DNA of 64,000 nt from an uncultured bacterium (GTDB taxonomy: Bacteria > Verrucomicrobiota > Kiritimatiellia > RFP12 > UBA1067). Of the stretch, positions 11,001 through 33,249 are shown one piece after another. Location of the stretch: positions 15,105 to 79,104 of the forward strand of contig CACYCL010000142.1 of NCBI GenBank assembly GCA_902772905.1. Direction: 5' to 3'. The translations under genes and the position numbers were made by a program. Every line of letters starts with the position of its first letter. Position 1 is the first letter of the stretch. The notes under the pieces were generated by a model, which did no database searches, had not been told where the DNA came from, and was given only the letters and a program-made list of their open reading frames with translations.

Positions 11001-14000
11001 TGGACGCCTCCACGAGGTACTCCCACACAACCGTGGCGGAGCCGCCGTCCGGGTCCTTGATGGTGAGCTTGACGCTCTGCGGGCCGGAATCCTTGAACGT
11101 CGGGATGAAGCCCGCCGCGCCGTCGGCAAGCGCGGCATCGCGGCTCGTGTAGGTCTTCGGGCCCCATCCGCCGCCGCCCTTGAACTCGACGGTTATTCCG
11201 CGCGAGAAGTCGAGGTCCACGTCGTCAAACGCCCAGGTGATGGCCTCGTCGGCAGCGCCGATGGAGGCCGGTATGGCGTTCGTGCTCGGAATCGGGTACA
11301 CGTCGAACTGCTCGTCGAGAAGCGGAGCGTCGTTGTAGACGAGCACGCGTGGCTGCACCACGCCGAGGTAGTACTCGCCGGGATGCTTGCCGCCGGAGTT
11401 CGGAACCACGTGCGTCGTGTCCTCGACCATCGTGGGCGAGATGCTGAAGCCGGAGTTGCGCGTGTCGGCCGTGCCGTCCATCGTCTTCACGTAGATGGTC
11501 TTCGTAGTCGTGCGCGCCGGGAACCTTACGTTGTAGCTGCCGTCGGACTGCAGCACGACGTCTGCCTCCTCCTGAAGCTGGAACGTGCCCGTGCCGCCCG
11601 TCGCGTTCGGAGCGACGACGAGGTTCACCCACATGTCGAACGCGCAGTCGTTGATGTCCAGATCGACCGTTATCGCAGCCTCGCCGCCGAAGTCAAGGCT
11701 GCTCTGCTCGTTGTACGGCGATGTCGTCGTGACCGTGATCGCCGGCTGGTCGATGACGTTCACGTAGAACACGAACTTCGAGCTCCACTTGTTGCCCATG
11801 TCCTTGTCGCGCAGGTCGACAGTGACCGTCCACCTGCCCGCCGTCGGGAAGTCGAACTTGCAGGTGGTCTCGTCGGGGTCGCCCTCGACGATGCCGGTGG
11901 TCGAGGCGGTCGAGGGGTCCGTCGGGCCGTACGTCGCGCCGGTCTCGTCGGTGAACACCCAGCGCATCTGGAACTTGCGGTCGTCGACGGAAACTGGGTT
12001 CTTGTCGAGGTCGCCCGGCTCCTCCACGACCAGCGAGAACTCCTGCTCGATGCCAAGCGGGAACTTCGCGGGCCTCTCGGCCCCGCCGACAGTCGCGCCG
12101 CTCTCGCTGACCTCGTAGAGGCCGAGCGTCACGGAGTCCACGGACGGCACTACGTTGTGCGTGGTGATGACGAGCGTGTTCTTTGCGCGGTATGCGCCAA
12201 CGCGCTTGTCGACGTCGTCGGTCCACGTGTCGGTCGTGAGGAACACAATCGAATAGGAGTACGTGGAGCCCATCTTGCTCGCGTCGCCGTCGAGCATGAC
12301 GAACTTGCAGCCGCTCGAAAGCGACGTGGCGTAGTTCGTGAGCTTGATGCCCTTGCCGCCCGCCGCCGCCTTCCACTTGCAGGATATCGCGGCGGCATCC
12401 GCGTCGGTGTCGCCCAGGATGTACGCGTAGATGTCGCCGAGCGTGTTCTGCTTGTCGAGCGTGATCTTCACCTGAACCTCGTCGCCCTCGTCGAACTCGT
12501 ATTCGCCGCTCGTGGTCTCCACCGTGTAGCCGGCGGGCGTAGTGACCTCAACCTGGAAGTTGTGGTTCGCGCTCTGGTTGCCGCTTACCGGGGAGACGAC
12601 GTACACGACGGACTTGTTCACCCCCGGCTCGTTGTAGATCACGCTCGGCAGCGTGTCGGTCGTGCCGACCTTGTAGAGCACATTGCCCTTGCCGGGCTTG
12701 TAGAGGCCATCGACCTGCGTGAAGGTGGTGTCGGTGTCGGTGTTCTTCTCTATCCAGACCTGGTAGCCGACGTCGCTCTGCATGTCGGCGTAGATGTCGC
12801 TCACTACGATCTGGAGCGTGCGCTCCGCACCGGCGATCGCAGTCGCGTAGTCGGTAGCGTCGAACATCGATTCGATGACCGGGTTCTGGGCGTTGATCGT
12901 GAGCGAGCTCTGGGCCGTGTTCCAGCCGTCGATGCCGCCGTCGGCAGAAGGCTGCGCGGCTGTCGTGTCGTCGGTCGTGACGGCGAACGTGAGCTTCTTC
13001 GTTCCGGTTACGTATTCGTCGCTCCTGAGCGCATAGAGGTATATCTTGCCGTCGGTGAGCGTCACGCCGTCAAGCATGGCGGGCGTGGTCGAGCCGGCCC
13101 TGAACACGAGAACATGGTTCGCCGCCGGGGTCGTGAGAGTCGGGTCGGCGTCCGTAGTGGCCGTGAGGCGGATGTAGTCCCACCAGTTGTTCGGGCACGT
13201 CGTGTCGGTGAACGCGGGGACGATCTCGACCTCGAAGTCGTGGTCGATCGGGTTCTCGGAGAGGCTCACGTTAAGCTCGGTCACGTAGGTCGTGTAGTCG
13301 CTCGTCGCGGTGACGGAGGTCTTGCCGGGCTTGATCGTGACGGAAGCCGGCTGGGGCTCAACGCAGGCGACCTTGCGCGTGAGGTAGTTGGCGAGCCTGG
13401 TGTTCTGCGGGTCGTACGTGAAGTCGGGGAACGCGCTGAGGACTATGTCGGCCTCGCCGCCCTTGGCGACGCCGCGAAGGTTGAACTCGTACTCCTGCTT
13501 GCCGGAGACGATCTTGACCTCGCCGACCTGGCGCGACTCGGTCGCTGTGGCAGAGGTGTGCACGGAGCGCGTGGTGACGTTCTGAACGTCGCGGCCTGCG
13601 ATCAGCTCGACCGCATCCGGGTTGTCGGACCAGACGTAGAGGGTTACGGAGTTTGTCGGCACGCCGGAGACGACGAGCGACGGCACGGAGCCGACGGGCT
13701 GGGCGTCGGTCGGGTGCTCGTGCACCGTGCGCCACAGCGTGGAGGTCTCGTCTTCGCTGTCGAAGTCCACCGTCTGGACGTTGAAGTTGCAGAGGGAGAG
13801 GTCGTAGTCGACGCGGCGGGCGACATAGTCGGGCGAGGAGGCCGAATAGCGCATTGTGCCGTAGACGAAGTTCGCAGAGCGCGTGGCGGCCGAGGAGTCG
13901 GTGGAGTCGTCAATGTCCCACGCGGCGGCGCCGAGCGACGTATCGCGGAAGTTCAGGTAGTACTCGACCGACGGCTCGTAAAGCGAATCGGTGACCATCG

Positions 14001-14421
14001 TCTTGTCCTTGGAGGCGAGGCGTATCGGGAGCGCGAAGTCGCCCGGCTTCACCTTGTACGAGAAGACGAGATCGGTGAATATCGCGGTGCGGGCGTTTAC
14101 CTTCTCAAGATAGGCGAGGGTAAGCTCCCCGTTCACGTAGATGCCTATCGCCGGGCGGTTCGCCACCCAGTCGACGGCCTCAGAGCTCAGGCCAGTGTGG
14201 ACGAGCCGGAACTGGTTGCCCGTGAACTGCGGCTTCATGAGGCGGACCGCGAAGTAGGCGGTTTCGCCGCCGTCAAGCGGCGCGGTGGGCTCCGCCACCA
14301 TCGTGCCGTTCACGTCGCACGGCAGTATCTCGTATATGTCGCCGTTCGCGGCGGCATGTGCGAATGGCGCGGCCAGCGCCAGCGCCGCTGCCGCCACTAT
14401 GTTCTTCATGACTTTCTTCAT
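2005..14421 (-). CDS. Giant secreted protein (about 4139 aa) with at least 12 TSP3-like D-x-D-x-D-G calcium-binding repeats and a LamG (Laminin_G_3 / ConA-like) domain
   Basis: One uninterrupted ORF. I moved the start to the ATG at 14421 (MKKVMKNIVAAAALALAAPFAHAA, a signal peptide) which has GAGGAG 6-11 nt upstream. Repeats such as DTDGDGLPDGWE, DSDHDGMDDYYE and DTDNDGLSNYVEY recur. The LamG signature reads FDGSRFILFVDG...GYIDEVRIWDGARAPADI. Confidence 0.8.
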   Translation of the reverse strand: MKKVMKNIVAAAALALAAPFAHAAANGDIYEILPCDVNGTMVAEPTAPLDGGETAYFAVRLMKPQFTGNQFRLVHTGLSSEAVDWVANRPAIGIYVNGELTLAYLEKVNARTAIFTDLVFSYKVKPGDFALPIRLASKDKTMVTDSLYEPSVEYYLNFRDTSLGAAAWDIDDSTDSSAATRSANFVYGTMRYSASSPDYVARRVDYDLSLCNFNVQTVDFDSEDETSTLWRTVHEHPTDAQPVGSVPSLVVSGVPTNSVTLYVWSDNPDAVELIAGRDVQNVTTRSVHTSATATESRQVGEVKIVSGKQEYEFNLRGVAKGGEADIVLSAFPDFTYDPQNTRLANYLTRKVACVEPQPASVTIKPGKTSVTATSDYTTYVTELNVSLSENPIDHDFEVEIVPAFTDTTCPNNWWDYIRLTATTDADPTLTTPAANHVLVFRAGSTTPAMLDGVTLTDGKIYLYALRSDEYVTGTKKLTFAVTTDDTTAAQPSADGGIDGWNTAQSSLTINAQNPVIESMFDATDYATAIAGAERTLQIVVSDIYADMQSDVGYQVWIEKNTDTDTTFTQVDGLYKPGKGNVLYKVGTTDTLPSVIYNEPGVNKSVVYVVSPVSGNQSANHNFQVEVTTPAGYTVETTSGEYEFDEGDEVQVKITLDKQNTLGDIYAYILGDTDADAAAISCKWKAAAGGKGIKLTNYATSLSSGCKFVMLDGDASKMGSTYSYSIVFLTTDTWTDDVDKRVGAYRAKNTLVITTHNVVPSVDSVTLGLYEVSESGATVGGAERPAKFPLGIEQEFSLVVEEPGDLDKNPVSVDDRKFQMRWVFTDETGATYGPTDPSTASTTGIVEGDPDETTCKFDFPTAGRWTVTVDLRDKDMGNKWSSKFVFYVNVIDQPAITVTTTSPYNEQSSLDFGGEAAITVDLDINDCAFDMWVNLVVAPNATGGTGTFQLQEEADVVLQSDGSYNVRFPARTTTKTIYVKTMDGTADTRNSGFSISPTMVEDTTHVVPNSGGKHPGEYYLGVVQPRVLVYNDAPLLDEQFDVYPIPSTNAIPASIGAADEAITWAFDDVDLDFSRGITVEFKGGGGWGPKTYTSRDAALADGAAGFIPTFKDSGPQSVKLTIKDPDGGSATVVWEYLVEASKTMTIVAHGPAGGDVSKYDSAAGLGRGRVWAESRSAISASWFKSIINCGLATEWTVHGYGYKVGDVDDGAQLHMPDGFGGYTVGYYLDRDTPLNGRGANLGASDSAYAYSASGDRNGNPVDSFLYAWMIKSADADSGSTSFTYLNETTAPEYLLASDSGKTATLPTEQDDKGNYATTTLEAIFSIEYLASDNMGDINLDGVPDVYVNKYGFGIVDTESGSVSGSDLTKVSGFNDDEDYLPSGETSVYGTLIPGLSGTWVTTGKPFNAKLEIRGNGDALNDATDNNALTRVANVLPDRVYTDPRADSKSTLDGYDGSMPVEYLAWLDYAAANGLDPEDKGNWTKWSPERPTDPTLADTDEDGLPDGYEYYIWYRAHVGYNDGGVHKYLTGRAYDPRNPGEGRFIPAAEIAATYDPVVANAAFSVSQDTDNDGLPDLIEFMIGTNPFDFDTDGDGLPDGFEIMIAGTDPLLRYTTTGVCDAMRNYDGDAMAYTSPMYEKNYMVPSPKHVKALSKFALVDANGDTDGIQWYVMPTGDLPTNMVFAADSAGYVVMVGGVTNLTTAVPAYTERNGKVYLAGDLSPENTWTAGSFTDADGDHLVRLMPTRLVAGTVLDEAPDTAATVDFGYVSFAEEVEESMAGWLYGRDVDGLTTGNARANVGGFGFLAIGRYQNAPAGVALAYLPEEDDTIAYLHYLVYQEFGFDPRTAWNANTPLGARWGTTASSDDGESTEAKANNFSATFGYAGVAARTREYTLYDEFLVMSFFLNNGASMEVHTSPTRTWAKVWSEYTTNGRGPNEPDLTTTDNYVGRTVVAGSTIENGADTDGDGVPDGWELYVMSGPKEYKAAEEKYYFRFPGPLSDGNFSAFGPFMPYAKNASYTDNMSTSGYDTSAGDNDNLTEWQEFAGTDTVLYYADYSTTITRPEEHAKWLNKFFPTDPWNADTDGDGVRDGDEARANGERGTNKGFIYGNPADDGKLCSIPGGGLNPLSVDTDLDGIPDGWEMQYNGSSVYSGEDATYATVDGSAVGNPLEGLVDGMDGTVMDALTIVTGSVDADGRIGTAILDRVDGAKMFGKVNRDYDRDGLENWQEYMAGTMRCWRYDDILTPWVSIPDEAYWDDDGNFSPDYELINELFGDETITTDAEDGGDGEFWYKTLVDKTSPIYNPRLISGQTTGAQYFSRIDNVWDPAYVDHSAGGAWYYFKDRVGDESLRDLWAMPFAEEAEKSGTFVTRPNKYISCSPIEADSDHDGMDDYYELFHGMNPLLGASGVPLKNEGPCDIVFDAWHSDGSDTIFEAWNADDPKANAWTFRAKNGTYYKTGEAPRGTGYDFEYYPWLNGLATADPDGDDLRNQTEAIMSKMGTKTWLHTDPTPLWMTDRSYDASLTRMYFRMPGRDIFVQTAGDEFTYGGQTYSFTDYGCWAPASLLPPLPPRYVECSQDRGWFLYGKGEMNWMFSFEENEGYDSDHDAMSDAVEAEGKLRASSDPQDANSPNRRQAMYFQGAGNPSALQTPPEVAERYPVATEVWPDEMTFMKFTVEAWVKAESTDDATFVERAIWCDESKAGDEEFVRKNFQIGIKNGKWYAKYDANGTLPRSYVEVFSAADVDTGAWHHVAATFDGSRFILFVDGYEAAAPVESARQPEYGTSALVLRRTTTPADFIYAHSTGDYWYDREYALRTIVVGASLKTLAEGGAADAFNVNNAVGWNYYNNFFKGYIDEVRIWDGARAPADIRSDVTARKRYTRDAALENRNSFYSDWRKYGNRYVKDADGDEVSLVPELRYHFSFDSVPGGADEGVVAKVPAGFDYYQVAALGNPERGAAVLSRPTDWNVSWWKKILDGFGSVYSSDQWVQWVPNTIAHLPRFDGTTLDSFFWSDNTCGGTNGTYNFARTAEPASRWTQLSYNDATRKTEYCAPGMRHHLMAELDSLVAKFENGSTTNETGTARFDMFRFTGRNALTDGFDLLPLGGAYAKSCSTMWDGEGASTSWEITSDDANFNDLPDIWEEFAVANYSPESEPLTWDTIVYWKRDVASSVPGIKMTAGEAYRRDLAHGRVVAANDDGDLDVLDRDDLAQTADEDKSGTPDWWDDMYGVYGEGGTTDTDNDGLSNYVEYIISECFPFGMLLNPKSPMSDTRTLDYFRRVGKLYVGEMFTDHDQMEDHWERAQNSDAIDANVWDAQRDGDENGWSNFAELRSKDDESTWVQVGTETNLYTVTFDMDSTERSIFMATNQAVIASVESLNNYSGWHLDIDNPGGGYRSSYDTKIRYTLVAYKPIVAYGGHPMPKVDLTVYYNGSQLSAGETATLVVNAYNDPAMLVPDAVFVLSNAVKRGVSNLTLHVPTAGMLKEGANHFMAYAVVSREGGDETQSSSIDYMPGTPFGVLHNVDVGWNSTKAEMELSDTSAIAPRLDLWTVDSCDRIARFGETSPSNKLITADVSSLPASTRVRVVRFAVDGDPVWKVNTDPEVIFDKTFSRDVRGFIHEGDFLADGALDIDWDNLERGVYNNIDVASAGDDVTNMTYAVVLGDGDIEYYSDKDNVHRVYAHPFAVTRRFEIRHTAPTAVTLNGDGVCRVAQPTFRWRIDNEDAWASAYGTTYTAFRVVVRDSSNNEVYNSGYQRMPAADSSGVYSWTAPLFADAPSPSGDHLVFKNLENYTWQVYTHNAKFKTDNVGSGWNTFRLNVTTLDESSFAVDARVCYVGPAANLANRIRVQAFESPDFTGMPVAEAVATNVTAEALAADAGSVVRIAGLKAGTYYLRAYIDTDYDWQLDDWESWGYLNMRDQAAVSGSKTIFNPVAVTVGPEIAAEAMRSIYIEDRDTDGDGFPDVWEAEQNGNVFDAEAITPVVGDAELIAVNTNLTATLTQLAQGFESPLQLPIGGKYAVSLMTGIPLSQVTTASGSLFIEDKVVDDSVAITSLAIDRASGEVVLGIGAETEAGSVDPAVAALYSVASGAKVTVKVYRTETLAADWKLVAEEPVTITSDGTEIRAPLPENVDAKSGFFRVEIE

Positions 14422-14481
14422 GTAGGTTCTCCTCTTAAAGTTCATTCCAAGGTTCTTTGTGGGTTTCACGTTCAATGCTCC

Positions 14482-14927: not shown

Positions 14928-17900
14928 TCATTCCTCAGGTCTGCACGGGTTGGCTGTCTTCATTATCTCCGCCTCGGTCGGCATGCTGCGGTCGCTGACG
15001 TCCCACTTGAAGAACAGCGACGACGGCCTGCCGTGCGTCTGCGCCCACTCGTACCAGCGCGCGCTGTAGCCGGGCGACTCTGTCGAGAACGGATCAAGTA
15101 TCTCGACCACCGACGTGAAGTCGGCGTCGAACGACGTTGGCGTGAACACGAACCACCTCAGCGGAATCCAGTTGCGCTCCTCGGCGGAGTCGACGGAAAG
15201 CCCGTTCACTCCGAGAAGCCCCTTGACCTTGAACGTGGCGTTCGTCCACAGCAAGTCAGACTCTATCTTCGCGTACTCCCAGGAGTTTTCCAGCAACTCC
15301 ACGCCCTGCAGTATGTAAGGCGCCCAGCCGGGGCCGCCCGCCGCCGTGTTCGTGATCTGCATGTAGACGCGGCTCGTGAGGTCGTTGCTTCCCGACTTCG
15401 GCCTCGGGCTCTCCGAGCCGGACCATCCGGCGCAGAGCCTGATGTCGTGGTCGTTCCACGTCGGGTCGATGTCGAACCAGTACATCTCGGTGAGCGTCAT
15501 GTTTGTCGTGACGGTGCCGTTCGCCTCCGCCTTGTCGGCAAGGCCCAGCTCCGTCGCGTCCTTGTTGTGCCATTCGTTGCCGTACGCGTCGGTTCCGCGC
15601 ACGAGCCAGTTCACGATGGCATTGCGGTAGCGGCTGTCCTCGCCAACGCCATAGCGCTCGGCGAGAGACGAATCGACCTTCGCGGACGCCACGACCGTGA
15701 TGTCGTTCGACGTCGCCGCGCCCACGCTGAGCGTCCATTCGCGGTCGTTGCCGGTCGGCACGGGCGTTGCGTACATTCCGTTCACCGTGACCGTGCCGAT
15801 CTCGTGCCAGCGGCCGGCGCGGTAGGTGATGTTCGTACCCTCCTCGCTTCCCTTGCGGTACACGACGGTCACGGAACCCGCGGTGTTCGTCTCGCTGCCG
15901 AACGACTGCGCAAGGTTGTCGCCCTGGATTATCGAGTATATCATCAGCGCGCCTCCGCGGGCCTTCGGCGGCTCGCCGGTTATCGCCTGGCCTTCGTTCT
16001 TGCGCCCGGGCGTCATCAGCTGCGTGTTGTTCCACTGGATCGCCGCGCTTCCGTTGCCGGCGAACACGCCGACTGACCTCGACCACGCATTGCCGGCGGG
16101 CACGCCGCCTTCGTCCGCGCCGACGTAGATGAAGTCTCCGCCGCGCTCCTGCGCCGAGAGCATCGCCGCCGCGTACTCTGGGTTGAACGACGACACGTAC
16201 GACCATTCGTTCGTTCCAAGCACGACGATCTCGCTCTCCACCACGCCCGACGGCCTCACGAGCTGCACCGCAAGCGGATAGTACGACTGTATCTCGCCGT
16301 TCATCACGCTGTCGGTTGCGTTCGCCACCGTCCACGTTCCGTCCAGCCTGCCGTCGCTCGCGTCCAGCGAGCCCTTCGCGTTCGGCGAGCCTATCACGTG
16401 AAACACCATCTTGGACTCCGCGTCGATGCCCTTCAGCTCAGTCTTCGTCGCCGGAAGCCCGTTCATGCCGAACTCCGCCACGTCGTTGGTGACCACCCCC
16501 GTCAGCCTGACGGGGTCGCTGCCGCTCATCTTCGCGTCGAGGAAGCGGAGCGTCCATCCGGAGAGGCTCGCGTCGGACGGCGCGGCCACCTCCACGAACT
16601 GCAGCGGCTTGTCGGAGTTGTTGTAGTTGTCGTCGTACACGCCGAATACGTTCGCCTCGTTGATCCACGCCCAGCCCGGCGCGACAGTGTCGAGCAGCGT
16701 GTAGGCCGAGAACGAGCCGTTGCCGTACTGGGCGTTGTAGTCGATGGGCCTGTACCACGGCGGGTTCTCCCACTCCGCCGACGACAGCCAGTTCGTCTGC
16801 GGCTGGCCGTTGGCGCGGTAGATGACCTCAAGCATGTACTGCACCGGCATCATCGACTTCTGGGCGGGCATGACGGCTGCGGACGCGCCGAAGTAGCCGG
16901 AGCGGAACACGAGGTTCGAGTCGCTCGCCTCCATCAGCCACGCGTTCTTAGCGTCCGGCAGGTCCCTCCACTTGTCGAAGCCCCACGGCGCCGGCTGCTC
17001 GTACCACCAGAGCCTGACGCGCGCGCTGGAAAGGTCGATCTCGTCGGCCAGCTGCGACGCATACACCTCGCACTGGACGCCCCACTCCTCGCCAACGAGC
17101 GGCTGCTGCGCTGCGGACGGCACGTTCGTAACCGCCGTGGTCTCCTCAAGGCCCGTGCGGAACGCGCCGACGTTGCGGAACGAGACCGACGCCACTATGC
17201 CCTCCATGACCAGCACTTCGTCGATGAGCACCCTCTGCGCCGGGACAAGCGGCTCCTCGTCGGCCATGGGCTCCGTAACGCCGTCCACCCCCGTCACCGC
17301 CAGGCGGAACGCCTTGTACGCGCTGCCCGCAGGGAAGCGCTTCGCGTACGCCTCGTACGTGGTGTTCGTTATGTCCCAGCTCGTGAGCTTCGCCCACATC
17401 GACTCTTCGCTCAGGTCGCCGTAGGTGGCGCCGTACAGCGTGACGCGCGCGGTTCCGGCCTTGGGGTCGTACAGCCTCGCCAGGAAGCTCACCTCGTTTA
17501 CCATGTTCGTCGCGAAAGTAGGCGTCTGCAGAAGCGGATACTTCTTCTTGTACTCGTCTGCCGAGCCGTCGGTGCGTATGTCGTCCACAATCGAGTTGTT
17601 GAGCGCGAACGCAAGGCCGTTCTTGAGCGGATCGCTCGCGTTGTCGTCGATGCTGACCAGCGCGCCGTCGTCCGTCGTGCGGAGGTTCCAGCCCCACCAG
17701 GAATGTGCGTCCAGCACCGGCTCGTCGCGGAACATTACGCCCGTTATCGTAACTTCTCCGAACGCCGTCGGGTCGGTCACGTCCTCTACCGCCGCCACCG
17801 TAGCCGGGTCTACCATGATGCGCATCGCGCCCCTCACGCCGTGCAGGCCGAAGTACACCCTGACCGTGCCGCTCGCGCGCTCTGCCGCGCTCATCGCCGC

Positions 17901-20900
17901 GAAGTTGATGTTCGTGAAAGTCGTCCAGGAGCCCTCCGCCGTCTTTGTGAGCGACTGGAAGCCCGAAAGCGGAACGCCGTTCGTGGCGATCTGCACGAGA
18001 AGCACCGCGTTCGACTGCGCGTTCTCGTACGTGAAGCCAAGCTGGCCGAGGCCGAGGCCCTTGTCGCCGTCGCCCACCATGCGCGGGGAGCGTATCGACG
18101 AGGCAACGTCCGCATACGACCTCTTGGCCGAGAGCAGAACCGCCTTGCCCTTCTCGCCTGCGGAGTTCACCGTCTCGCGAACCCAGCCCTGCGTGAACAC
18201 GATGTTCGTGGGAGAGCCATACACGAGGTCGTCGAACACGCCGAGCTGGTCGCCGTTCTCGTCGTCGTAGCTTTCGCCGCGCCACTGCGTGAACTCGATG
18301 TCGTCAAGCGTAACGTCCACGCGCGCCGTCTTGAAGCCGCCGCCGGCCTGCAGCCTCACGGAGCACGGATCAAGGCTGTATAGCGGAATCGTCGTGGTGG
18401 CGCCCGAGGAGCTGGACGACCCGAAGCCCGAAACCTCCTGCGACTTCAGAAGCGCCCACTTCGTAGTTCCCGCAGGTGCGGTGTACACGTCAACCGTAGT
18501 GGAGGGTGTCTTCGCGTTGATGCCGTAGCTGTTGAAGTCGCCCGTATTCACAGCCTCCATGCGCGACTTGTTTATCGCCCACTTGCCCGCCGCCAGGTCT
18601 TCTCTGCAAAGGACACGCGCCGAGGTCGAGATCGGCGTTATGGTGTATGTTCCCTGCTGGAAGCCGTTCTGCGAAGACGATGCCTGGTACGTAACCGCCG
18701 ATGCGCTGTACGACGGCTGCATGAAACGCGCCGGGCAGTTCGCCGAGAGAAGCCCGTACGTTCCGTACGTAAGGCGCTCTGCGGACGTGTCACGGTACAT
18801 GACCTCGCGGTACGACGCGCTGTTGAAGAAGCTCGACCTCGCAACGGAGTCTCTCGCAACTCCGCCGACTACGCGCGTCTGGCCGTCCACCGACGTATCG
18901 ACCGATATGAAGAGCCGCGCATAGCTGCCGCCCTCGCTCGTGGTGTTGAACATGTTGTTGCCGTTGGAGTGCGTGGCGGTGCCGAGGCGCGTCGGAACTA
19001 TCTCGCCTTGCTCGTCGTCGTACAGCCAGCGGTACAGCGAAAGCCTGAACGTCGTGCCCGGCGAAACAACTCCAGCCGTGTTGATCGATGCGTTTTCCTG
19101 TTCCACCCGAAGCTCATAGCACCCAACCCCAGTCGTGTAGTGCGCAACGAGCGAGAGCGACGCATTGCCGGCGAAGTTCCTCCTGCCGTTTATGTCGAAC
19201 GCCGCAGCCGTCATGAACGTATATGTGCTAAGCGAAGTCGCGTCTGTTCGGAAATAGCTGAAGTCGCCAAACGAAATGTCCTGCGCGATTCGCGCCTTGA
19301 ACGACACCGACTCAAGCCCGCGCGGCGCGCCCGTGAAGTCAACGAGCTGAATGTAGCCCTTGCCCTTGCCCTCCATCTGGAGCGCCATTCCCGTGTTGTT
19401 GTCGCGGTAGAAGCCGTTCACCCACTGTCCGGGGCCAACGTCGAACGCCGTGTTCGGCGATATCGCCGCGCCGAACGGCTGGTACAGCGGCCAGGAACCT
19501 CCGTCCAGCTCCGCCTTTGTCGCGTAGAACGCCTCCTGCCAGTACTGGTTCGTCGGAACAGAGATGTTCCAGCTCTCGAAGTGCGACTCGTGCGTTACTG
19601 CCTCGGCGGTCGTGCCCGACATGTTCACCGAATTCGTGTCGGAGGAAGTTCCAACGAAAATGCCCTTGCCGTCCGTCTTGTTTGCGTCTGTCCAGCCGTT
19701 GAAGTCCTGGTAGTCGGCGTGGACCACCGTGTAGGCGAGCGTGTCGTCCTGAATCTGAACCATTATCTGCCCGCTCTTGGCGTCGCATGGAACGGTATGC
19801 CACGCCCAGCCGTCGTCGTTATCGCTTGCGGCGAGCACACCCGTCGCCGGCAGGTCTCTCGCGTTTTCCGCGAGAGAGTAGCGCACCGTGTTGAGGTCGT
19901 ATTCGGTGTTGCCTGCCTCCTGCCTGTTGTTGCCGGCGATTCGAATGTAGATCCCGCCGTCTATCGCAGTGCGCGTCGGGCAGAAGCCGCGCCAGATGTG
20001 GTTGGCCGAGAGCGACATGTCGTACGCCTTCTCCTCGCCGTCCTCGCTCTCCTTTACATAGAGCGTGAAGCCCTCCCAATCGCTCTCGCCGCGCCTCAGG
20101 CGGAAGAACCAGTCGGTTCCGCCGCTCGGCAGGCTCGTGTAACCCGTAACGGAAATCTGCCTGTTGGTGCTTGCCGTCACCTCTTCGGTGTAGAGCGCGC
20201 TGCCATCGGCGCCATTGAGGTCGAGACCAAGGCCAGAGTAGTCGTAGTACTTGAACGCCGGAACCTGAACTACGTAGTCGTACCAGAACTCGATGTCGCC
20301 AACAACTGCGGGAATGTCGATTGGCTGTATCGAGGTGAACCCGGCCGAGGGGCGAAGGTTTATGGTCTGCCACTCGTTCGTCTGCTGGTTGAGATAGCGC
20401 CAGCGGTAGTTCATCTGCGCCCAGGCAATCGGCATATCAACCGCTACGTGCGCGTTCACGTTGGTGTCAACAAGCGCCTTGGCGCGGGCGTACACCCCTT
20501 TCGCGCCGGCCTTCGGGAACGGTACGCTCATCGCGCCACCCCAGCCGCGCACCTGCCGACCCGTCAGCTTGTTGTTGAACGACCCGTAAGGCTCCAGCGA
20601 CGCCGTCGACTTCGGGTACGAAACGAGAATGTTGTCAACAACTATAAAGCCGTATTCGTCGGCAGTCCACGTCTGGTTTGGAATCTGTGCCGTGCGGACA
20701 ATCCTGAAGCGCACGTTGCCGCCGTTGTCCACGGGAACCGCCACGCGGTAGAAGTTGTCGGCGGTGCCGCCGTTTGTGATCTCAAGCGTCAGCTCCGTGG
20801 CATCCGTCTGGTCTGGCGCAAAAGCCGCAGTGTTGTCGCGCTTGAACGGCTTCATCGCGTATGCGTTGTAGTTGGTGCCGCCGTCAACAGACACTTCAAC

Positions 20901-23615
20901 CCTTATCTTGTAGCATCCGGCATTGGCGTACCTGGTGTCGGCGTTTACAACGTCGAAGTAGATCGTTCCCACGCCGTTCGTGTAAAGGGGCGAGAATATC
21001 ACCGCGCCTTCTACGTTGCGCATAAGCATGGTGCCCTGCTCGGTCAGCCCCGCCGCCGCAGACTCGGCCGATATCGCCTTCGCTGTTGACGAATTAGGTA
21101 GATAGCAACGTACGCTTCCCGGAATACCTCCGGCTAAGTACGTGTTGCCTATGACGACATCTTCCAGCGTCCACAACGCATTGGCATTGCCGCTTGAATC
21201 TGTGGTGTAAAGCACGTGGTTTGCATACGGCTTGACATACGGGAAACTTCCTATGTTTACACTGTGATCCACAGAATGTACCCAGTACGTAGAATGCACT
21301 GAGCTGTCCGTCTGCCAGTACGACTGGTCGGTTACGGAATGGCCGCCGGGGGCGGAGTCGTCGTTCACTAGCAGAACGCGCCCGTTCTGCGTAAGCCCGC
21401 CCGCGTCGCCCGCGAGATCTTCGTAGGTGATGTGGCCAACTATGAAGAAGTCGATGCCGTACTCAAGCGTTTCGTATATACCTTCCGGGTCGTGCGGACC
21501 AAACACCGCGCTGTACGAGCCGCCGGCGGTCGGGATGCCGCTCATTACCGCGCCCGTGTTGAGGTTCGTAACGTAGAGAAGCGCCGATGTGCCTTCTTTG
21601 ACCGCGCCCACGCTCTGAACCGCTCCTATCTCGGAATCGGTTGAATCCCACTTTGTCTTCGTGAGCGACGGGTAGGCCGTCCAGTAGTTCACGCGCTTGC
21701 CGTCGCGAACAACCAGGTCGAAGGTGCAGCTCGGCTGTGCGCCGGAAGGCTCGTCTACGGAGGCGGAGCGGCTTGGCGGCTCCTTGCCGTCGCGAACATA
21801 CCAGAAGAGGCGAATCACCTGCGAGCTGGTTGTCATGGTCGGCAGCTTTACCCAAATGACCGATTCGCCCGAAGTGTTCCAGTAGTCAACCTTGTAGTCG
21901 AGGAGAGTGCCGTCCGCATCGGTTATGGCGAGGTCTTCGCCAGTCTTGCCGGCGCGCGAGTAGAGGAAGCCGACAGGCGCATCCTCGGCAACCTTCAGCG
22001 CGTAGGAGTAGTCGGTGGCGGCGGCAGAAGCGCCCGCTATCGTTATCTCCACGTAGTCGCGGTAGACGTCGCCCGGACCGTTCAGAATCTTGAAGCTCGT
22101 AATTGCCTCGGCGCCGTTGTAGCTGTCGGTAGCCTCGATGTAGGCGCGCAGGTAGTAGGTGCCAACCTCCGTAGGCTTTTCGGCCGCCCACGGCCCAGTG
22201 GCAGATTCGCCATACCAGTACGTAGGCGCAACTGCAATGGAGACGTCGCAGCCCGGATTCGGCGTAGCCTCGTCGGGAGTGCCGTAGATCCAGTTGCGAA
22301 TGGAGAGGTTCGTTATCTTGGGCGTGGCCTTGCTGATCGTGAGCGTAACCGTAACCTCCTCATTGCCGCCCGTGGACCACTCAAAGCCGTCAACGAGCGT
22401 GACCTTGGCCTTGTAGGTTCCGAAATTAGTGCCAGCAACGCTTTCAACCACCTGACCGTATGTAGCCGAACCCTCGGTCAAGTCGGTAATCACATACGCC
22501 GCGTTCGCGGGAACCAACACATGCTCCAAGCCGTCGAAAGCAATCGCCTGAGAGACCGGCTTTGCGATTTCGCCAACGGCTATAACGCTAATTCTGATGT
22601 ACAGAACGCCCTGATAGCCGCTACCACCGCGTGTAGTCGCGCGCGCTGGAAGCGCACCACAGCCGCCGCCGCCACCGCCGTAGAATGTAGCGTCAGTTGC
22701 CGCTACGTTAAGGCCGTAACCGCCGTTGCCGCCGCCACCCTTGCCGCCAGCGATGGGGTCGTGCGACGCAGTGAACGACTTGTCGCAAAAGCCGCCCGCG
22801 CCGCCACCTGCATAGTAGATTTCTTCGCCAGTGATATCGCTTGCGCGACCGTCGCCGCCTACAGGGTTGGTCGTGGAAGCCGCAGCACCTGCAGCGCCTG
22901 CACCGCCGCCGCCGCCGCCGTAAAGACCACGGTTACCAGCACCGCCTGCATAACCCTGACCATTGGTTGCTGCGCCGCCTGGATGACTCTCACTTACCGT
23001 TGTACCTGAACGATAAGCTGAACCGCCGCCTCCGCTGCCACCGTCAAGACCATCGCCTTCACCACCGCCACCGCCTCCGCCGACCGCCGTGATCAGCGCC
23101 GTTTCACCAATGGAAAGCGTTGTGTTGCCGCCAGACGAGCCAGTGTATCGACCACGCGTTGCACTATGCAACTGCGACGACGCTCCACCTGCGCCACCCG
23201 AACCAACAGTAACAGAATACGTGGCAGAATCAAAAACACTAGTCGTCTCTACCATGCCACCTGCGCCGCCACCTGCGCCAGCACCATAATACGTTGTCAT
23301 CGCAGTGGAAAGAGTGCATATGCCTCCTCCGCCACCTCCGCCGCCGACCGCGAGAACTCGAGCCTTGGTCTTCGAGCCTTCGGGAAGCACAAACGAGCCT
23401 TCGCCGGTGAACTTGAGGAGCAGCTCGGTGCCGTTGAGCCACGTTACATCTGCCGCGCCGTAGTACTGAACTTCGCCGCCAGTCACCGTGGCGCTGCCAT
23501 CAAGAGCCTTTGCATCGCGTACGAGCGATGCCATAAGAGAAAGCACGACAAGAGCGCGCGCCCATAGCGCCGCCCCGCTCCTTTTCTCGCGTTTCTGGAA
23601 GCGATTACGCGTCAT
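14928..23615 (-). CDS. Giant secreted glycine-rich protein (about 2895 aa)
   Basis: One uninterrupted ORF. I moved the start to the ATG at 23615 (MTRNRFQKREKRSGAALWARALVVLSLMASLV, signal-peptide-like) with an AAGGGAG RBS. The N-terminal 350 aa carry poly-Gly and GGxGG tracts. The stop is 18 nt from the lipoprotein gene start. Confidence 0.75.
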   Translation of the reverse strand: MTRNRFQKREKRSGAALWARALVVLSLMASLVRDAKALDGSATVTGGEVQYYGAADVTWLNGTELLLKFTGEGSFVLPEGSKTKARVLAVGGGGGGGGICTLSTAMTTYYGAGAGGGAGGMVETTSVFDSATYSVTVGSGGAGGASSQLHSATRGRYTGSSGGNTTLSIGETALITAVGGGGGGGEGDGLDGGSGGGGSAYRSGTTVSESHPGGAATNGQGYAGGAGNRGLYGGGGGGAGAAGAAASTTNPVGGDGRASDITGEEIYYAGGGAGGFCDKSFTASHDPIAGGKGGGGNGGYGLNVAATDATFYGGGGGGCGALPARATTRGGSGYQGVLYIRISVIAVGEIAKPVSQAIAFDGLEHVLVPANAAYVITDLTEGSATYGQVVESVAGTNFGTYKAKVTLVDGFEWSTGGNEEVTVTLTISKATPKITNLSIRNWIYGTPDEATPNPGCDVSIAVAPTYWYGESATGPWAAEKPTEVGTYYLRAYIEATDSYNGAEAITSFKILNGPGDVYRDYVEITIAGASAAATDYSYALKVAEDAPVGFLYSRAGKTGEDLAITDADGTLLDYKVDYWNTSGESVIWVKLPTMTTSSQVIRLFWYVRDGKEPPSRSASVDEPSGAQPSCTFDLVVRDGKRVNYWTAYPSLTKTKWDSTDSEIGAVQSVGAVKEGTSALLYVTNLNTGAVMSGIPTAGGSYSAVFGPHDPEGIYETLEYGIDFFIVGHITYEDLAGDAGGLTQNGRVLLVNDDSAPGGHSVTDQSYWQTDSSVHSTYWVHSVDHSVNIGSFPYVKPYANHVLYTTDSSGNANALWTLEDVVIGNTYLAGGIPGSVRCYLPNSSTAKAISAESAAAGLTEQGTMLMRNVEGAVIFSPLYTNGVGTIYFDVVNADTRYANAGCYKIRVEVSVDGGTNYNAYAMKPFKRDNTAAFAPDQTDATELTLEITNGGTADNFYRVAVPVDNGGNVRFRIVRTAQIPNQTWTADEYGFIVVDNILVSYPKSTASLEPYGSFNNKLTGRQVRGWGGAMSVPFPKAGAKGVYARAKALVDTNVNAHVAVDMPIAWAQMNYRWRYLNQQTNEWQTINLRPSAGFTSIQPIDIPAVVGDIEFWYDYVVQVPAFKYYDYSGLGLDLNGADGSALYTEEVTASTNRQISVTGYTSLPSGGTDWFFRLRRGESDWEGFTLYVKESEDGEEKAYDMSLSANHIWRGFCPTRTAIDGGIYIRIAGNNRQEAGNTEYDLNTVRYSLAENARDLPATGVLAASDNDDGWAWHTVPCDAKSGQIMVQIQDDTLAYTVVHADYQDFNGWTDANKTDGKGIFVGTSSDTNSVNMSGTTAEAVTHESHFESWNISVPTNQYWQEAFYATKAELDGGSWPLYQPFGAAISPNTAFDVGPGQWVNGFYRDNNTGMALQMEGKGKGYIQLVDFTGAPRGLESVSFKARIAQDISFGDFSYFRTDATSLSTYTFMTAAAFDINGRRNFAGNASLSLVAHYTTGVGCYELRVEQENASINTAGVVSPGTTFRLSLYRWLYDDEQGEIVPTRLGTATHSNGNNMFNTTSEGGSYARLFISVDTSVDGQTRVVGGVARDSVARSSFFNSASYREVMYRDTSAERLTYGTYGLLSANCPARFMQPSYSASAVTYQASSSQNGFQQGTYTITPISTSARVLCREDLAAGKWAINKSRMEAVNTGDFNSYGINAKTPSTTVDVYTAPAGTTKWALLKSQEVSGFGSSSSSGATTTIPLYSLDPCSVRLQAGGGFKTARVDVTLDDIEFTQWRGESYDDENGDQLGVFDDLVYGSPTNIVFTQGWVRETVNSAGEKGKAVLLSAKRSYADVASSIRSPRMVGDGDKGLGLGQLGFTYENAQSNAVLLVQIATNGVPLSGFQSLTKTAEGSWTTFTNINFAAMSAAERASGTVRVYFGLHGVRGAMRIMVDPATVAAVEDVTDPTAFGEVTITGVMFRDEPVLDAHSWWGWNLRTTDDGALVSIDDNASDPLKNGLAFALNNSIVDDIRTDGSADEYKKKYPLLQTPTFATNMVNEVSFLARLYDPKAGTARVTLYGATYGDLSEESMWAKLTSWDITNTTYEAYAKRFPAGSAYKAFRLAVTGVDGVTEPMADEEPLVPAQRVLIDEVLVMEGIVASVSFRNVGAFRTGLEETTAVTNVPSAAQQPLVGEEWGVQCEVYASQLADEIDLSSARVRLWWYEQPAPWGFDKWRDLPDAKNAWLMEASDSNLVFRSGYFGASAAVMPAQKSMMPVQYMLEVIYRANGQPQTNWLSSAEWENPPWYRPIDYNAQYGNGSFSAYTLLDTVAPGWAWINEANVFGVYDDNYNNSDKPLQFVEVAAPSDASLSGWTLRFLDAKMSGSDPVRLTGVVTNDVAEFGMNGLPATKTELKGIDAESKMVFHVIGSPNAKGSLDASDGRLDGTWTVANATDSVMNGEIQSYYPLAVQLVRPSGVVESEIVVLGTNEWSYVSSFNPEYAAAMLSAQERGGDFIYVGADEGGVPAGNAWSRSVGVFAGNGSAAIQWNNTQLMTPGRKNEGQAITGEPPKARGGALMIYSIIQGDNLAQSFGSETNTAGSVTVVYRKGSEEGTNITYRAGRWHEIGTVTVNGMYATPVPTGNDREWTLSVGAATSNDITVVASAKVDSSLAERYGVGEDSRYRNAIVNWLVRGTDAYGNEWHNKDATELGLADKAEANGTVTTNMTLTEMYWFDIDPTWNDHDIRLCAGWSGSESPRPKSGSNDLTSRVYMQITNTAAGGPGWAPYILQGVELLENSWEYAKIESDLLWTNATFKVKGLLGVNGLSVDSAEERNWIPLRWFVFTPTSFDADFTSVVEILDPFSTESPGYSARWYEWAQTHGRPSSLFFKWDVSDRSMPTEAEIMKTANPCRPEE

Positions 23616-23671
23616 CCGCTCCCTTCTCAACTTTTCTTTTCGTTCTCTTTTTTCTTCGTTTCATTGCAAGG

Positions 23672-23822: not shown

Positions 23823-25133
23823 TTACCGCGAGCAGAGCCTCGCGGCGAAATCGTTCAGCGCAAGGCAGTTGCGGCGAAACGCGCGCGCAGCCGCAGAATT
23901 GCGCCGCATCTCAAGGGCGCTTATGGCCGGAGCGTCAGGGCAGCCGCTTAGCAGCACAAGCCGCCCTGCGGCGATCTCGCGGGAGTCTTCGGCCGAAGGG
24001 TCGTAGCGCGGCGGCAACGAATGCGGCAGCAGCTTTACGAACCGCGCGCCAGGCGTTGCCTTGAGGCGGCGCAACGCCTCGCGCTCGCCCGGCGAGATAA
24101 AGCCCGATACTGGCACTCGCCCGCGCTTGGCCTCTTCGACTATTTCGGCTATAGCTGCCTCATGCTCGGCAACGGTCTTCTTCAGCGTTAGCCGAACGTG
24201 AAAGAAAAACGGCGAGCCTAAAACCGTTACGTCGCCGAAGGCGTGGTAGAACCTGGAAAGAACGGGGCTCCGCCCCGAACCCTCGCCAGCCGCCAACGAA
24301 CCGCGCGCTGCGCCCTCGCCAGCCGCGCCAAAGCCCAGCAGCTTCTCGGCTGGTATCGCAACGCGGCGAAAGCGGTCGGGGTGGCGAAGCCGCCAAATCG
24401 CTCGCGCAGGGTTCAGCTTTATGTAGCGCCGCGTTGCCTTGAGCTGCCGCGAATCGAAGGAGAGTTCTATGTAGCAGCTGCGGTCGAAGAACCGCTGAGG
24501 CTCTTTGCGCTCGCGGCCAGCGCGCCAGCCAGCAGTTTCAGCTGCTATGGCCTCGCGCATAAGCTCTGCCATTGTTTCGCGCAGCCCATTCGCCGCCGCG
24601 CCAGCTACTGCGCCAAATTGGGGTTCGGGGCGCGCAACGCTCGCGCCAACCGCCGCGCCAAATTGGGGTTCGGGGCGCGCAACGCTCGCGCCAACCGCCG
24701 CGCCAAATTGGGGTTCGGGGCGCGCAACGTTCGCGCCAACCGCCGCGCCAAATTGGGGTTCGGGGCGCGCAACGCCCGCGCCAACCGCCGCGCCAAATTG
24801 GGGTTCGGGGCGAAGCCCCGTCCGTTCCAAGTACCACTCAACAGCATCCAGCAACCTATGGCTAAGGTAAAGCGGGCTTACGCGGCGGTCGCGCCCATAA
24901 TCAACGATTAAAACAAAATGCAGGTGATCTGGCATTATAACGAAATCTGAAACCCCTACCGCCTTGTTAACTTGGTGCAGCGCCAGCAACGCCGCCTTTA
25001 CAACCTCGCCAACCGCGCTCAGCGCCGGCCTTGCGGTTTCATCGACCAACTTCGAGAGAATCTTAGCCCGCCCTGCAACAGTAAGCGTTACAAAGAAAAA
25101 CTGCCGCCCTGAATGGCTGTAATCAAGCTTCAT
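23823..25133 (-). CDS. IS200/IS605-family (RAYT-like) HuH tyrosine-transposase-like protein carrying an internal 5 x 15-aa tandem repeat and a roughly 200-aa C-terminal extension
   Basis: HuH motif VSDFVIMPDHLHFVLIV. Candidate catalytic Tyr context ATRRYIKLNPARAI, which is RAYT-like. Five ARPEPQFGAAVGA[SNG]V repeats sit between these two motifs. Confidence 0.6.
   Translation of the reverse strand: MKLDYSHSGRQFFFVTLTVAGRAKILSKLVDETARPALSAVGEVVKAALLALHQVNKAVGVSDFVIMPDHLHFVLIVDYGRDRRVSPLYLSHRLLDAVEWYLERTGLRPEPQFGAAVGAGVARPEPQFGAAVGANVARPEPQFGAAVGASVARPEPQFGAAVGASVARPEPQFGAVAGAAANGLRETMAELMREAIAAETAGWRAGRERKEPQRFFDRSCYIELSFDSRQLKATRRYIKLNPARAIWRLRHPDRFRRVAIPAEKLLGFGAAGEGAARGSLAAGEGSGRSPVLSRFYHAFGDVTVLGSPFFFHVRLTLKKTVAEHEAAIAEIVEEAKRGRVPVSGFISPGEREALRRLKATPGARFVKLLPHSLPPRYDPSAEDSREIAAGRLVLLSGCPDAPAISALEMRRNSAAARAFRRNCLALNDFAARLCSR
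24596..24815. repeat. 45-bp tandem repeat, about 4.5 copies, in-frame inside the RAYT-like CDS
   Basis: The unit cgccaaattggggttcggggcgcgcaacgctcgcgccaaccgccg repeats head-to-tail with only 1-2 substitutions per copy. Each unit contains the hairpin GGCGCG-caacgct-CGCGCC. Confidence 0.85.
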
Positions 25134-25214
25134 CTTGCACTTCTCTTTCTCCCATGTGCGCGTGTATTATACTAAATGCGTTTGCACGGAGCAAGGAGCG
25201 TTTACATTCCCTCC

Positions 25215-25372
25215 GCACCCGCGCAGGGAAACCCTTTGTCCCGTGTAGGGAACCCGTTTGCTCCGTGTAGGGAACCCGTTCCCCCCGTGTAGGGAAACCG
25301 TTCCCCCCGTGTAGGGACAACGCCCACCCCGTGCAGGGAGAGCGCCCACCCCGTGCAGGGGAGAGCCCCCGG
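25215..25372. repeat. Array of about 7 degenerate 22-bp tandem direct repeats (REP-like palindromic units) immediately 5' of the RAYT-like gene
   Basis: Units match ccgtgYagggRaMMcgYYcMcc. Examples are ccgtgtagggaacccgttcccc x2, ccgtgtagggaaaccgttcccc and ccgtgcagggagagcgcccacc. Several units form GGGAAC-cc-GTTCCC hairpins. There are no unique spacers. Confidence 0.8.
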
Positions 25373-25380
25373 GGGTGAGA

Positions 25381-25422
25381 AAACGGACAAAACAACGAAG
25401 CCGCAGGGTTTCCCCCGCGGCC
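25381..25422 (-). terminator. Rho-independent terminator of the GLUG-motif protein gene
   Basis: Minus-strand RNA reads GCCGCGGGGGAAACCCUGCGGC, an imperfect 8-bp stem, followed by UUCGUUGUUUUGUCC. It lies about 30 nt after the stop at 25454. Confidence 0.5.
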
Positions 25423-25453
25423 TCGCTGTTTGGCTTATTCGGCCTTGAGCAGC

Positions 25454-30880: not shown

Positions 30881-30958
30881 TCGCTTAAAAGCCGAAAGCC
30901 AGCAGTCCGGAAGCGAAGACTCTGCTTCTGTCGCGTGGAGACATTATACACTATTTGT

Positions 30959-31042
30959 CCCCTATTTTGCAATAGGCAGATTAGGGGATAAAAAAGATGC
31001 CAGGAAAATTTAGCCCCTATTTTGCAATATGCAGATTAGGGG
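30959..31042. repeat. Two copies of a 29-31-bp hairpin element (cccctattttgcaatakgcagattagggg) spaced 55 bp apart
   Basis: Each has a CCCCTA...TAGGGG stem. On the minus strand each carries TTGCAA, and the proximal copy lies 18 nt upstream of TATAAT (gtgTATAATgtc), a promoter-like arrangement. They sit directly upstream of the truncated ATPase fragment. Confidence 0.6.
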
Positions 31043-31080
31043 ATATTATTTGATAGGCTTGAGCACAGGGTTTTCAGACC

Positions 31081-31125
31081 ACGGAAGAGCACTGAAACCG
31101 CCGCTTGGCGGGCACGGAAATGGTT
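31081..31125. repeat. Copy 1 of a 45-bp direct repeat (acggaagaRcactgaaRccgccgcttggcgggcacggaaatggtt)
   Basis: Near-identical to copy 2 at 32921..32965. It contains a CCGCC-gctt-GGCGG hairpin. ORF-track entries 31029..31316 and 32842..33192 share GRALKPPLGGHGNG only because both read through this repeat. Confidence 0.6.
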
Positions 31126-32795: not shown

Positions 32796-32920
32796 ATTTT
32801 CGTTATTAAGTCAATCGTTCCAATGATGTTTCATCATTTCTGTGCTTTATCACTATTGCAGAACGATATTAAGAACAAAAATCAAAGCTTATCCACCATT
32901 CTTCCTTGTACCAAATCACT

Positions 32921-32965
32921 ACGGAAGAACACTGAAGCCGCCGCTTGGCGGGCACGGAAATGGTT
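32921..32965. repeat. Copy 2 of the 45-bp direct repeat, about 126 nt upstream of the full-length ATPase gene
   Basis: See copy 1. It is followed by atataatga. Confidence 0.6.
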
Positions 32966-33249
32966 ATATAATGACCGCGCGCGCGTATATATTGGCGTCG
33001 ACTTTGCCCTTTGGGCCAAAAAACTCGTCAGAAAGGCCGAAAAATATTCAATGGATTGAAACGCGAAAGTGCAGCCTTGCACTCGCAAAAGTGCATGGTT
33101 GCACTCGGCAACTTGCATCGGATGCACTCGCAAAAGTGCAAGGTAGCACTTCGCGCAGTCAATGGTTGCACTTTCGCGCATCCATCCATTGACTCGAAAA
33201 GCCCCATATTGAGGCCCTCTATCACCCCTTCACATAGGCGAGAGCGGCA

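Follow-up and report, generated by a model that had tools for sequence, protein, structure and literature searches.

What is a run of near-identical 15-residue repeats doing inside a nuclease-like protein, between its HuH motif and its catalytic tyrosine, and does the repeat belong to the protein at all? The question is raised by a gene on the reverse strand of a 64,000-nucleotide stretch of DNA from an uncultured Kiritimatiellia bacterium (GenBank contig CACYCL010000142.1, positions 15,105 to 79,104; hereafter the window). An initial annotation, made from the sequence alone, had likened its product to REP-associated tyrosine transposases (RAYTs; REP, repetitive extragenic palindrome), and the HuH motif, in-frame repeat and Tyr motif that it listed are all in place. 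We find that the 15-residue repeat is not a protein module: it is a translated, tandemly amplified piece of a small DNA element. The protein itself consists of two domains, a HuH tyrosine nuclease core of RAYT/TnpAY1 class 2 type, with H-u-H and Y-x3-N-P intact, and a DprA-type Rossmann domain.

Tandem Repeats Finder (TRF) places the 45-bp array at 24610-24812 and gives it a score of 392, its 4.5 copies matching at 98% and lacking indels, in agreement with the near-identical units first described. Its 23-nt core is present in five exact copies, against none expected from 100 shuffles. At the peptide level, this corresponds to four full ARPEPQFGAAVGAxV units and a fifth, diverged one.

The array is closed by a complete element, A (oligonucleotide sequence GGGGTTCGGGGCGAAGCCCCGTCCGTTCC), read antisense as ERTGLRPEP. 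The anatomy of the element is simple: a foot, GGGTT, a GC hairpin of 5-8 bp and a tail, TCCGTTCC. A second complete element, B, is inverted with respect to A; together they form a 37-nt inverted repeat (I2, 84% complementary) that brackets the Tyr module. Both complete elements of the window lie inside the gene, and a pattern search returned 2 copies where 0.1 were expected. Element B was also scored as intrinsic-terminator-like (24263-24277, minus strand), with six G-C pairs followed by TTCTTTCC; it stands on the sense strand within the gene, between the nuclease and DprA-like domains.

The same element recurs with related genes. In a TRF survey of 51 genomic loci, GGGGTTCGGGG(G)C and its complement emerge as the DNA core common to arrays inside and beside the gene. 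The window has six copies of the 10-mer GGGTTCGGGG, where 0.2 would be expected, and all are within the gene; across loci, the 10-mer reaches 1.08/kb in family genes, falls to 0.64/kb within 600 bp of them and to 0.02/kb beyond. We then define a complete element structurally, as GGGNN and, after it, a stem that starts with CGGGG and pairs perfectly over 6 bp or more. A census of 53 loci counts 63 such elements in genes, another 32 no more than 600 bp away and 3 in the remaining 368 kb; 42 loci have at least one in the gene or within 600 bp. The element core is enriched about 150-fold in and beside family genes, across species.

In 66 of the 96 unique instances, the foot runs straight into a perfect stem of 5-8 bp, most often CGGGG(G)(C)...(G)(C)CCCCG, with a loop of 3-6 nt and a tail of either TCCGTTCC or T[AT]TCATTGG. 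The sixth pair of the stem covaries (GC 20, CG 10); covariation computed by RNAalifold on elements preselected for their stem is partly circular, and this sixth pair alone is informative. In arrays, [foot + spacer]n leads up to a single complete element.

What is conserved at these loci is the DNA and not its translation. Elements lie in either orientation, and the readings of the motif inside genes cover all six frames: PEP (15), PNP (3), PRTP (4), GFG (9), GVRG (5) and GSG (8). It is therefore a DNA motif that is maintained, not a peptide, and survival in six frames constitutes strong population-genetic evidence to that effect. Wherever an array lies in the gene (12 loci), its period is a multiple of 3, indicating selection for an intact reading frame, whereas periods of flanking arrays are unconstrained (22, 23, 25, 41 and 47 bp are also seen). 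Annotators may take a warning from this: low-complexity linkers of the 'PEP/PNP/GFG' kind can be translated mobile or structured DNA.

The main rival explanation accepts the same RAYT-DprA-like fusion and makes the enzyme inactive on the repeats. A slippage-prone, selfish or structural GC-rich motif would simply have come down by inheritance in a disordered loop that tolerates it, with replication slippage making its copy number drift. The loop is indeed predicted to be disordered and is highly variable in length, the 98% identity between units favours slippage, the unit hairpin is no stabler than in shuffled sequence, and no genome-wide dispersal is seen over the window and 368 kb of flanks. 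However, the same 10-mer and hairpin are kept between species with catalytic domains just 40-50% identical, where the rest of the loop is unalignable. They are kept in both orientations and all six frames, and in non-coding arrays beside the gene too. A non-tandem indel of 117 bp holds a complete element, and a sister family of proteins has its own, different palindrome. With inversions and extragenic copies, descent plus slippage alone is inadequate, and we regard this explanation as possible but rather doubtful.

The number of units is variable, as judged from the assembled sequences of the window and other short-read assemblies. Over the gene and the DNA upstream of it, three contigs from other samples match the window at 100% identity, except in carrying 4, 3 or 2 units instead of 5; a further assembly likewise has 4. 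The initial annotation had named an assembly artefact as one way in which it could fail, and four different unit numbers in four short-read assemblies might suggest one. Yet all five observed sequences have the array between flanks that are 100% identical, the variants peculiar to single units (GGC, AAC, AGC) keep the same order throughout, and two independent assemblies concur on four units. Moreover, the longest identity between shifted copies is below 90 nt, under the k values used (127-141), and analogous arrays exist in other family members. The array is not a one-off assembly artefact; that it, or at least its size, should be artefactual is very unlikely.

A second comparison concerns two homologues, P0006 and P0009, whose proteins are 99% identical and differ by 81 aa in length. 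The difference is made of three 42-bp units and the 117-bp non-tandem insertion, which brings one more complete element. Elements are thus gained and lost by indels quickly when measured against point substitution, and collapse in assembly is by itself insufficient to account for the difference.

To what kind of protein do the elements belong? Searches with the full protein were empty (including one of PDB sequences, with no match) or gave a sub-threshold RAYT match only, so structure prediction was required. The AlphaFold2 model, built from a 117-member family alignment, has a pLDDT of 82 and a pTM of 0.78, the pLDDT dropping below 50 at the repeats (aa 115-176) and at aa 277-284 of linker 2. 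From the N- to the C-terminus, a RAYT-like HuH/Y1 domain is followed by the repeat loop, the Tyr module, a second loop and the DprA-like domain (Table 1). The top 41 Foldseek matches of the model are IS200/IS605 transposases, DprA, ShosA and TnpAREP; all others are weaker.

The N-terminal half is predicted to have the Y1-transposase fold, with the HuH motif ([ND]H-u-H; PDHLHF, aa 68-73) on strand b3 and Y-x3-NP on helix aD. The latter is the signature of TnpAY1 class 2, which comprises RAYT/TnpAREP (Quentin et al. 2018, PMC6006769). Residues H70 and H72 are at least 90% conserved in the 117-sequence alignment and invariant across the HuH-DprA family and its sister family. Y237 and N241 are invariant among the 117 sequences and kept by the sister family as well; P242 is at least 90% conserved. 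The match to the RAYT model is unbroken in the short-linker homologue P0057, from before the HuH motif to beyond the Tyr motif. The predicted structure puts the element in a surface loop, disordered, that joins helices aB and aC, and its inverted copy in the loop before the DprA-like domain; the repeats would form a linker between HuH and Tyr, a point that the initial annotation had proposed to check by structure prediction.

Table 1. Features of the HuH-DprA-like gene and its surroundings (positions in the window).
Feature	Nucleotides	Strand	Residues	Description and basis
Whole gene	23823..25133	-	1-436	436 aa + stop, ATG start; open reading frame list, homologues, AlphaFold2 model
HuH/Y1 core, first half	24813..25133	-	1-107	b1, aA, b2, b3, aB
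HuH motif IMPDHLHF	24915-24938	-	66-73	
Tandem array	24597..24812	-	108-179	Four 45-bp units + start of terminal complete element; RPEPQFGAAVGAxVA repeats, each unit with foot GGGTTCGGGG on + strand; disordered loop; TRF, exact-copy search
Element A	24800..24828	+		GGGGTT-CGGGGC-GAA-GCCCCG-TCCGTTCC: foot, 6-bp stem, 3-nt loop, tail; sequence and element survey
HuH/Y1 core, second half	24336..24596	-	180-266	aC, b4, aD
Catalytic Tyr motif RRYIKLNPARA	24399-24431	-	235-245	Y237, N241, P242
Linker 2	24258..24335	-	267-292	Length varies in family; partly disordered
Element B	24255..24282	-		GGGTT-CGGGGC-GGA-GCCCCG-TTCTTTCC; read GSGRSPVLS; end of linker 2
DprA/SLOG-type Rossmann domain	23826..24257	-	293-436	Conserved: SPFFFHVRLTLKK, VSGFISPGE, YDPSAEDS, AAGRL
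FFFHVRLT		-	309-316	
22-bp array	25218..25370	-		Seven units (CCCTRCACGGGG... on gene strand); directly upstream of likely promoter; TRF

The C-terminal extension had been suspected of being a degenerate duplicate of the HuH fold. It is instead a DprA-type Rossmann (SLOG) domain, as indicated by both Foldseek and profile alignment. When a C-domain profile made from two subfamilies is searched against the PDB, DprA of H. pylori ranks first (E 0.035), with an in-register alignment over 95 residues. Here FFFHVRLTLKK aligns to the first strand and basic loop of DprA (VAIIGTRRPT) and VSGFISPGE to VSGGALGVD, in keeping with a Rossmann fold of the DprA type. The SAM and winged-helix domains of DprA are absent from the model of the window protein. 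Conserved basic residues (R314, K318, K319) follow strand b1 of the domain; together with the fold, they suggest that it may bind single-stranded DNA (ssDNA) or load RecA.

An exhaustive search with the C-domain profile collected 1553 representatives at 50% clustering, 1074 of them with E <= 1e-10. Nearly all are 300-480 aa long with the domain at the C-terminus, and a few show weak Y1_Tnp matches. One relative, P0381 (536 aa), has no HuH domain: its C-domain is fused to OB_YrrC (a RecD2-type OB fold) and a helix-hairpin-helix (HhH) domain.

Rossmann domains of SLOG type also suggest another role, in which the C-domain would bind a nucleotide signal in place of ssDNA and control the HuH nuclease in the manner of SLOG in Thoeris ThsA, or act like ShosA in Shosta. 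This we consider improbable. PADLOC has no model for the protein, its C-domain or relatives, and no ShosT-like (PRTase-type toxin) or other conserved effector partner was found in the neighbourhoods. The best sequence-profile match is DprA itself, and one relative joins the same domain to the DNA-binding modules OB_YrrC and HhH.

How does this protein compare with known systems? Like TnpAREP/RAYT proteins, it has a HuH and Y-x3-NP core; its gene is chromosomal and of low copy number with diverged paralogues, and is flanked by hairpin elements with a conserved 5' foot. REPs with such a foot flank tnpAREP genes, forming REPtrons (PMC6006769), and E. coli TnpAREP cuts its cognate REP in single-stranded form, enzyme and REP co-evolving (PMC8266576). 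The closest parallel is TnpAY1 subclass 2.4, the only one in which REPs also occur in frame within tnpAREP, between HuH and Y, as a variable repeat region on the protein surface (PMC6006769). The insert between aB and aC in the window protein corresponds to this b3:aC region, in a loop predicted to point away from the active site.

Unlike TnpAREP/RAYT proteins, the present one carries a 140-aa DprA-type Rossmann domain at its C-terminus, scores under the NCBIfam and Pfam thresholds and is hosted by gut Kiritimatiellia, and its elements are concentrated at the gene, with no dispersal seen. None of the 12 TnpAY1 subclasses was reported with a DprA-type domain (PMC6006769), and no description of a HuH-DprA or RAYT-SLOG fusion was found in the searchable literature. 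A RAYT with in-gene REP-like repeats is of a known kind; the DprA-like fusion is new. Seen from DprA/Smf, the domain lacks SAM and winged-helix partners, leaves Pfam DNA_processg_A unmatched and has a Gly-rich loop SGFISPGE in place of SGxAxGID. It also differs from DprA and ShosA in being fused to a HuH nuclease, with no Shosta partner.

Palindromes inside genes have precedents as well. Rickettsia palindromic elements are in-frame palindromic insertions in genes. In these and in REP-in-gene insertions (the latter in PMC6006769), as here, short palindromes are tolerated in surface loops of open reading frames with the frame kept. The present elements differ in being near-confined to one family, which encodes the likely cognate enzyme, and in forming tandem arrays.

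With moderate confidence, we favour the following composite reading: the gene encodes a chromosomal RAYT-class enzyme with a resident REP-like element, near TnpAY1 subclass 2.4, with a new DprA-like fusion, and its HuH domain acts on the element. That action is inferred by analogy to TnpAREP. The biological role of RAYTs and the spread of REP-like elements are open questions on which this family bears. Its pairing of enzyme and element is unusually clean, the element being near-confined to the enzyme's own gene and flanks and surviving in six frames, and the elements are short, defined substrates for biochemistry. The previously undescribed fusion of HuH/Y1 and DprA-type domains suggests that the cleavage of hairpins is directly coupled to the handling of ssDNA or the loading of RecA.

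Several observations weigh against this reading. The association between enzyme and element is positional only. The relationship to Y1 transposases stood in the fold, the HuH motif and Y-x3-NP, but not in profile searches: Pfam returns no match for the full window protein, PF01797 included (threshold 23 bits; relatives reach 14-16 bits), and NF047646, the NCBIfam model of REP-associated tyrosine transposases, gives a sub-threshold 27 bits against a cut-off of 80. No DprA family match is obtained at E <= 10 in Pfam or NCBIfam either, and both domains are below curated thresholds. At the position ahead of b4 where RAYTs have a conserved W (W[EQ]), linked to recognition of the foot, the present family has an invariant F216 (F-[DNE]-R); the sister family retains the W, and subclass 2.1 has an FQ variant (PMC6006769). 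The foot is GGGTT/GGGTG here and GT[AG]G in RAYTs.

Further points concern the element and its array. A GC hairpin had been attributed to every unit; the 6-bp stem GGCGCG/CGCGCC is there, but the folding energy of two 45-bp units is no better than that of composition-matched shuffles (z 0.04, -0.53). The differences in unit number come from short-read assemblies, in which partial collapse is possible. No element is found in the other 62 kb of the window; with only 3 complete copies in 368 kb of flanks, it is rare away from the gene and over this DNA does not look like a dispersed high-copy REP. Finally, the GGGGTTCGGGGC-hairpin core is also found in unrelated metagenomic repeat families that lack the gene, on contigs of 29-75% GC.

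This last point can be made more precise. A metagenome-wide scan for GGGTTCGGGGCNNNGCCCC has the gene on 1 of 120 contigs among the matches listed; these contigs come from unrelated environments and are uninformative on dispersal within host genomes. Rfam has no family for the gene region or for the widespread hairpin core. The bare core is thus not unique to the family; the tailed version and the association with the gene are. Separately, we observe that repeats of the core GGGGTTCGGGGC-NNN-GCCCCG in these contigs (L059-L178) lie for example at 2198-2216, 4349-4367 and 12869-12887 of L120, in L167 and L071, and at both contig ends of L070. In AT-rich contigs, the GGGGTTCGGGGC core is followed by a second covarying hairpin of about 14 bp.

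For the composite reading with a HuH domain acting on its element, we can propose a mechanism. By analogy to TnpAREP and REP, the HuH domain would recognise the folded hairpin and foot on single-stranded DNA, and the element would be cut and rejoined through a 5'-phosphotyrosyl intermediate at Y237. Meanwhile, the DprA-like domain could hold the flanking single strand and perhaps recruit RecA. Predominantly cis action by the enzyme would lead elements to build up in its own gene and close by, with survival restricted to intergenic DNA and to loops that tolerate them. The number of units would change when adjacent feet are cut and rejoined, or by slippage between them, which would give the 2-5 copies.

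A bolder version of the same idea is tentative. Here the proteins would make up a new HuH/Y1 branch of more than 1500 clusters, mostly from gut bacteria of the Planctomycetes-Verrucomicrobia-Chlamydiae (PVC) group, in which a RAYT-type nuclease is permanently coupled to a DprA-type module for ssDNA binding and RecA loading. Acting in cis on hairpin elements in its own gene and in adjacent surface-protein and glycan operons, it might be a self-contained, domesticated single-strand recombination device that makes local repeat-number and sequence variation, and not a disperser of REPs.

A simpler proposal would be an active insertion sequence of the IS200/IS605 type, a standard transposase gene with a chance repeat. 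It has in its favour the TnpA fold and the name RayT given by JGI to one homologue. Against it, IS200/IS605 TnpA proteins (ISHp608, ISDra2, S. tokodaii) are obligate dimers of about 130-150 aa with Y-x3-Q, and their elements are multicopy, with subterminal hairpins and frequently accompanied by tnpB. The present case shares none of these traits: the protein, roughly three times as large as TnpA, has the class 2 motif Y-x3-NP, and no tnpB neighbours the window gene or lies in the neighbourhoods examined. The initial annotation had advised a search for additional copies: the gene is single in the 64-kb window, and metagenome-assembled genomes (MAGs) contain 1-4 diverged paralogues, which within one MAG are 39-50% identical to the query. 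No homologue was found in plasmid or phage collections, and family genes overlap host genes in operons, by 4 nt with their neighbours (giant secreted proteins, cellulases) in L004 and L005. The gene is chromosomal, in host operons, and not an insertion sequence, so that an active one is hardly credible. The interpretation in the initial annotation, which had considered a domesticated or novel-architecture HuH enzyme, is supported in part.

Searching for homologues yielded over 690 clusters (90% identity), 360-440 aa long and nearly all unnamed, from rumen and gut metagenomes and Kiritimatiellia MAGs. The family is large, without a Pfam or NCBIfam model, and present in abundant gut and rumen Kiritimatiellia. 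Its members differ most in the loops: the stretch aligned to query aa 105-186, which holds the repeat loop, ranges over 10-82 aa, and that aligned to q262-298, which holds linker 2, over 13-72 aa. Unrelated tandem peptide repeats occupy the repeat-loop site in 15 of 117 members. Split or truncated gene copies are seen in about 8 of 51 loci (L037, L040, L046, L051, L052, L053, L057, L058) and could be due to pseudogenisation, sequencing error or switching. At L040, the frame shifts within a 24-bp array, which reads QAPEPP in one frame and SPRTPE in the other.

A sister family emerged from locus L005, which also encodes a distant paralogue, P0121, with MPEHFH, the canonical W, DYLADNPRR and the same C-domain. 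It has at least 3399 matches, all unnamed. Its palindrome differs from the element described above, being CTCCGAGC-N4-GCTCGGAG + CACAGAAC; it is found in frame at gene termini, and a 24-bp x 7 array adjoins the gene. An inverted copy of it lies just upstream of the family-1 gene in L005. A distinct sister palindrome is consistent with enzyme-specific elements. The two distant HuH-DprA-like paralogues of L005 (4055-5305 and 8001-9164) belong to one operon, where they flank the gene of a 900-aa Laminin_G_3 protein, whose 5' end has the 24-bp x 7 hairpin array (5350-5530).

Statements on neighbourhoods are based on precomputed gene calls of the contigs. The window gene stands between two same-strand genes for very large proteins, one of 2900 aa (Gly_rich_2) and one of 1077 aa with no Pfam match. 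The former (14928-23630) is itself adjoined by a second giant reading frame (2005-14475, 4156 aa), both on the minus strand. At other loci, too, family genes adjoin very large secreted proteins (PATR, Laminin_G_3) or cellulases; sister-family genes stand at the end of glycosyltransferase operons.

Upstream of the window gene, the seven 22-bp units have the terminator of the 1077-aa gene (25390-25431) on one side and the likely -10 box of the HuH gene (25166-25171) on the other. This array is unique to its site in the window and 100% conserved in L001-L003. Its units combine GTAG, after which come small GGAAC/GTTCC palindromes, with the 7-mer CCGTTCC, also the tail of the element. The stability of its hairpins is likewise no better than that of shuffles, and whether the array is part of the system is uncertain.

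Other repeats of the window are unrelated to the element. A pair of 38-nt direct repeats is intergenic (30953-31045), and two 48-nt copies, 94% identical (31078-31125 and 32918-32965), contain a GCCGCC-GCTT-GGCGGC hairpin. At 33048-33192, in a divergent intergenic region, an unrelated 22-bp palindromic array (TGCACT...AGTGCA) includes a 58-nt inverted repeat. Similar palindromic arrays of 22-23 bp occur in L007, L017, L045 and L056, and may be a general feature of these genomes.

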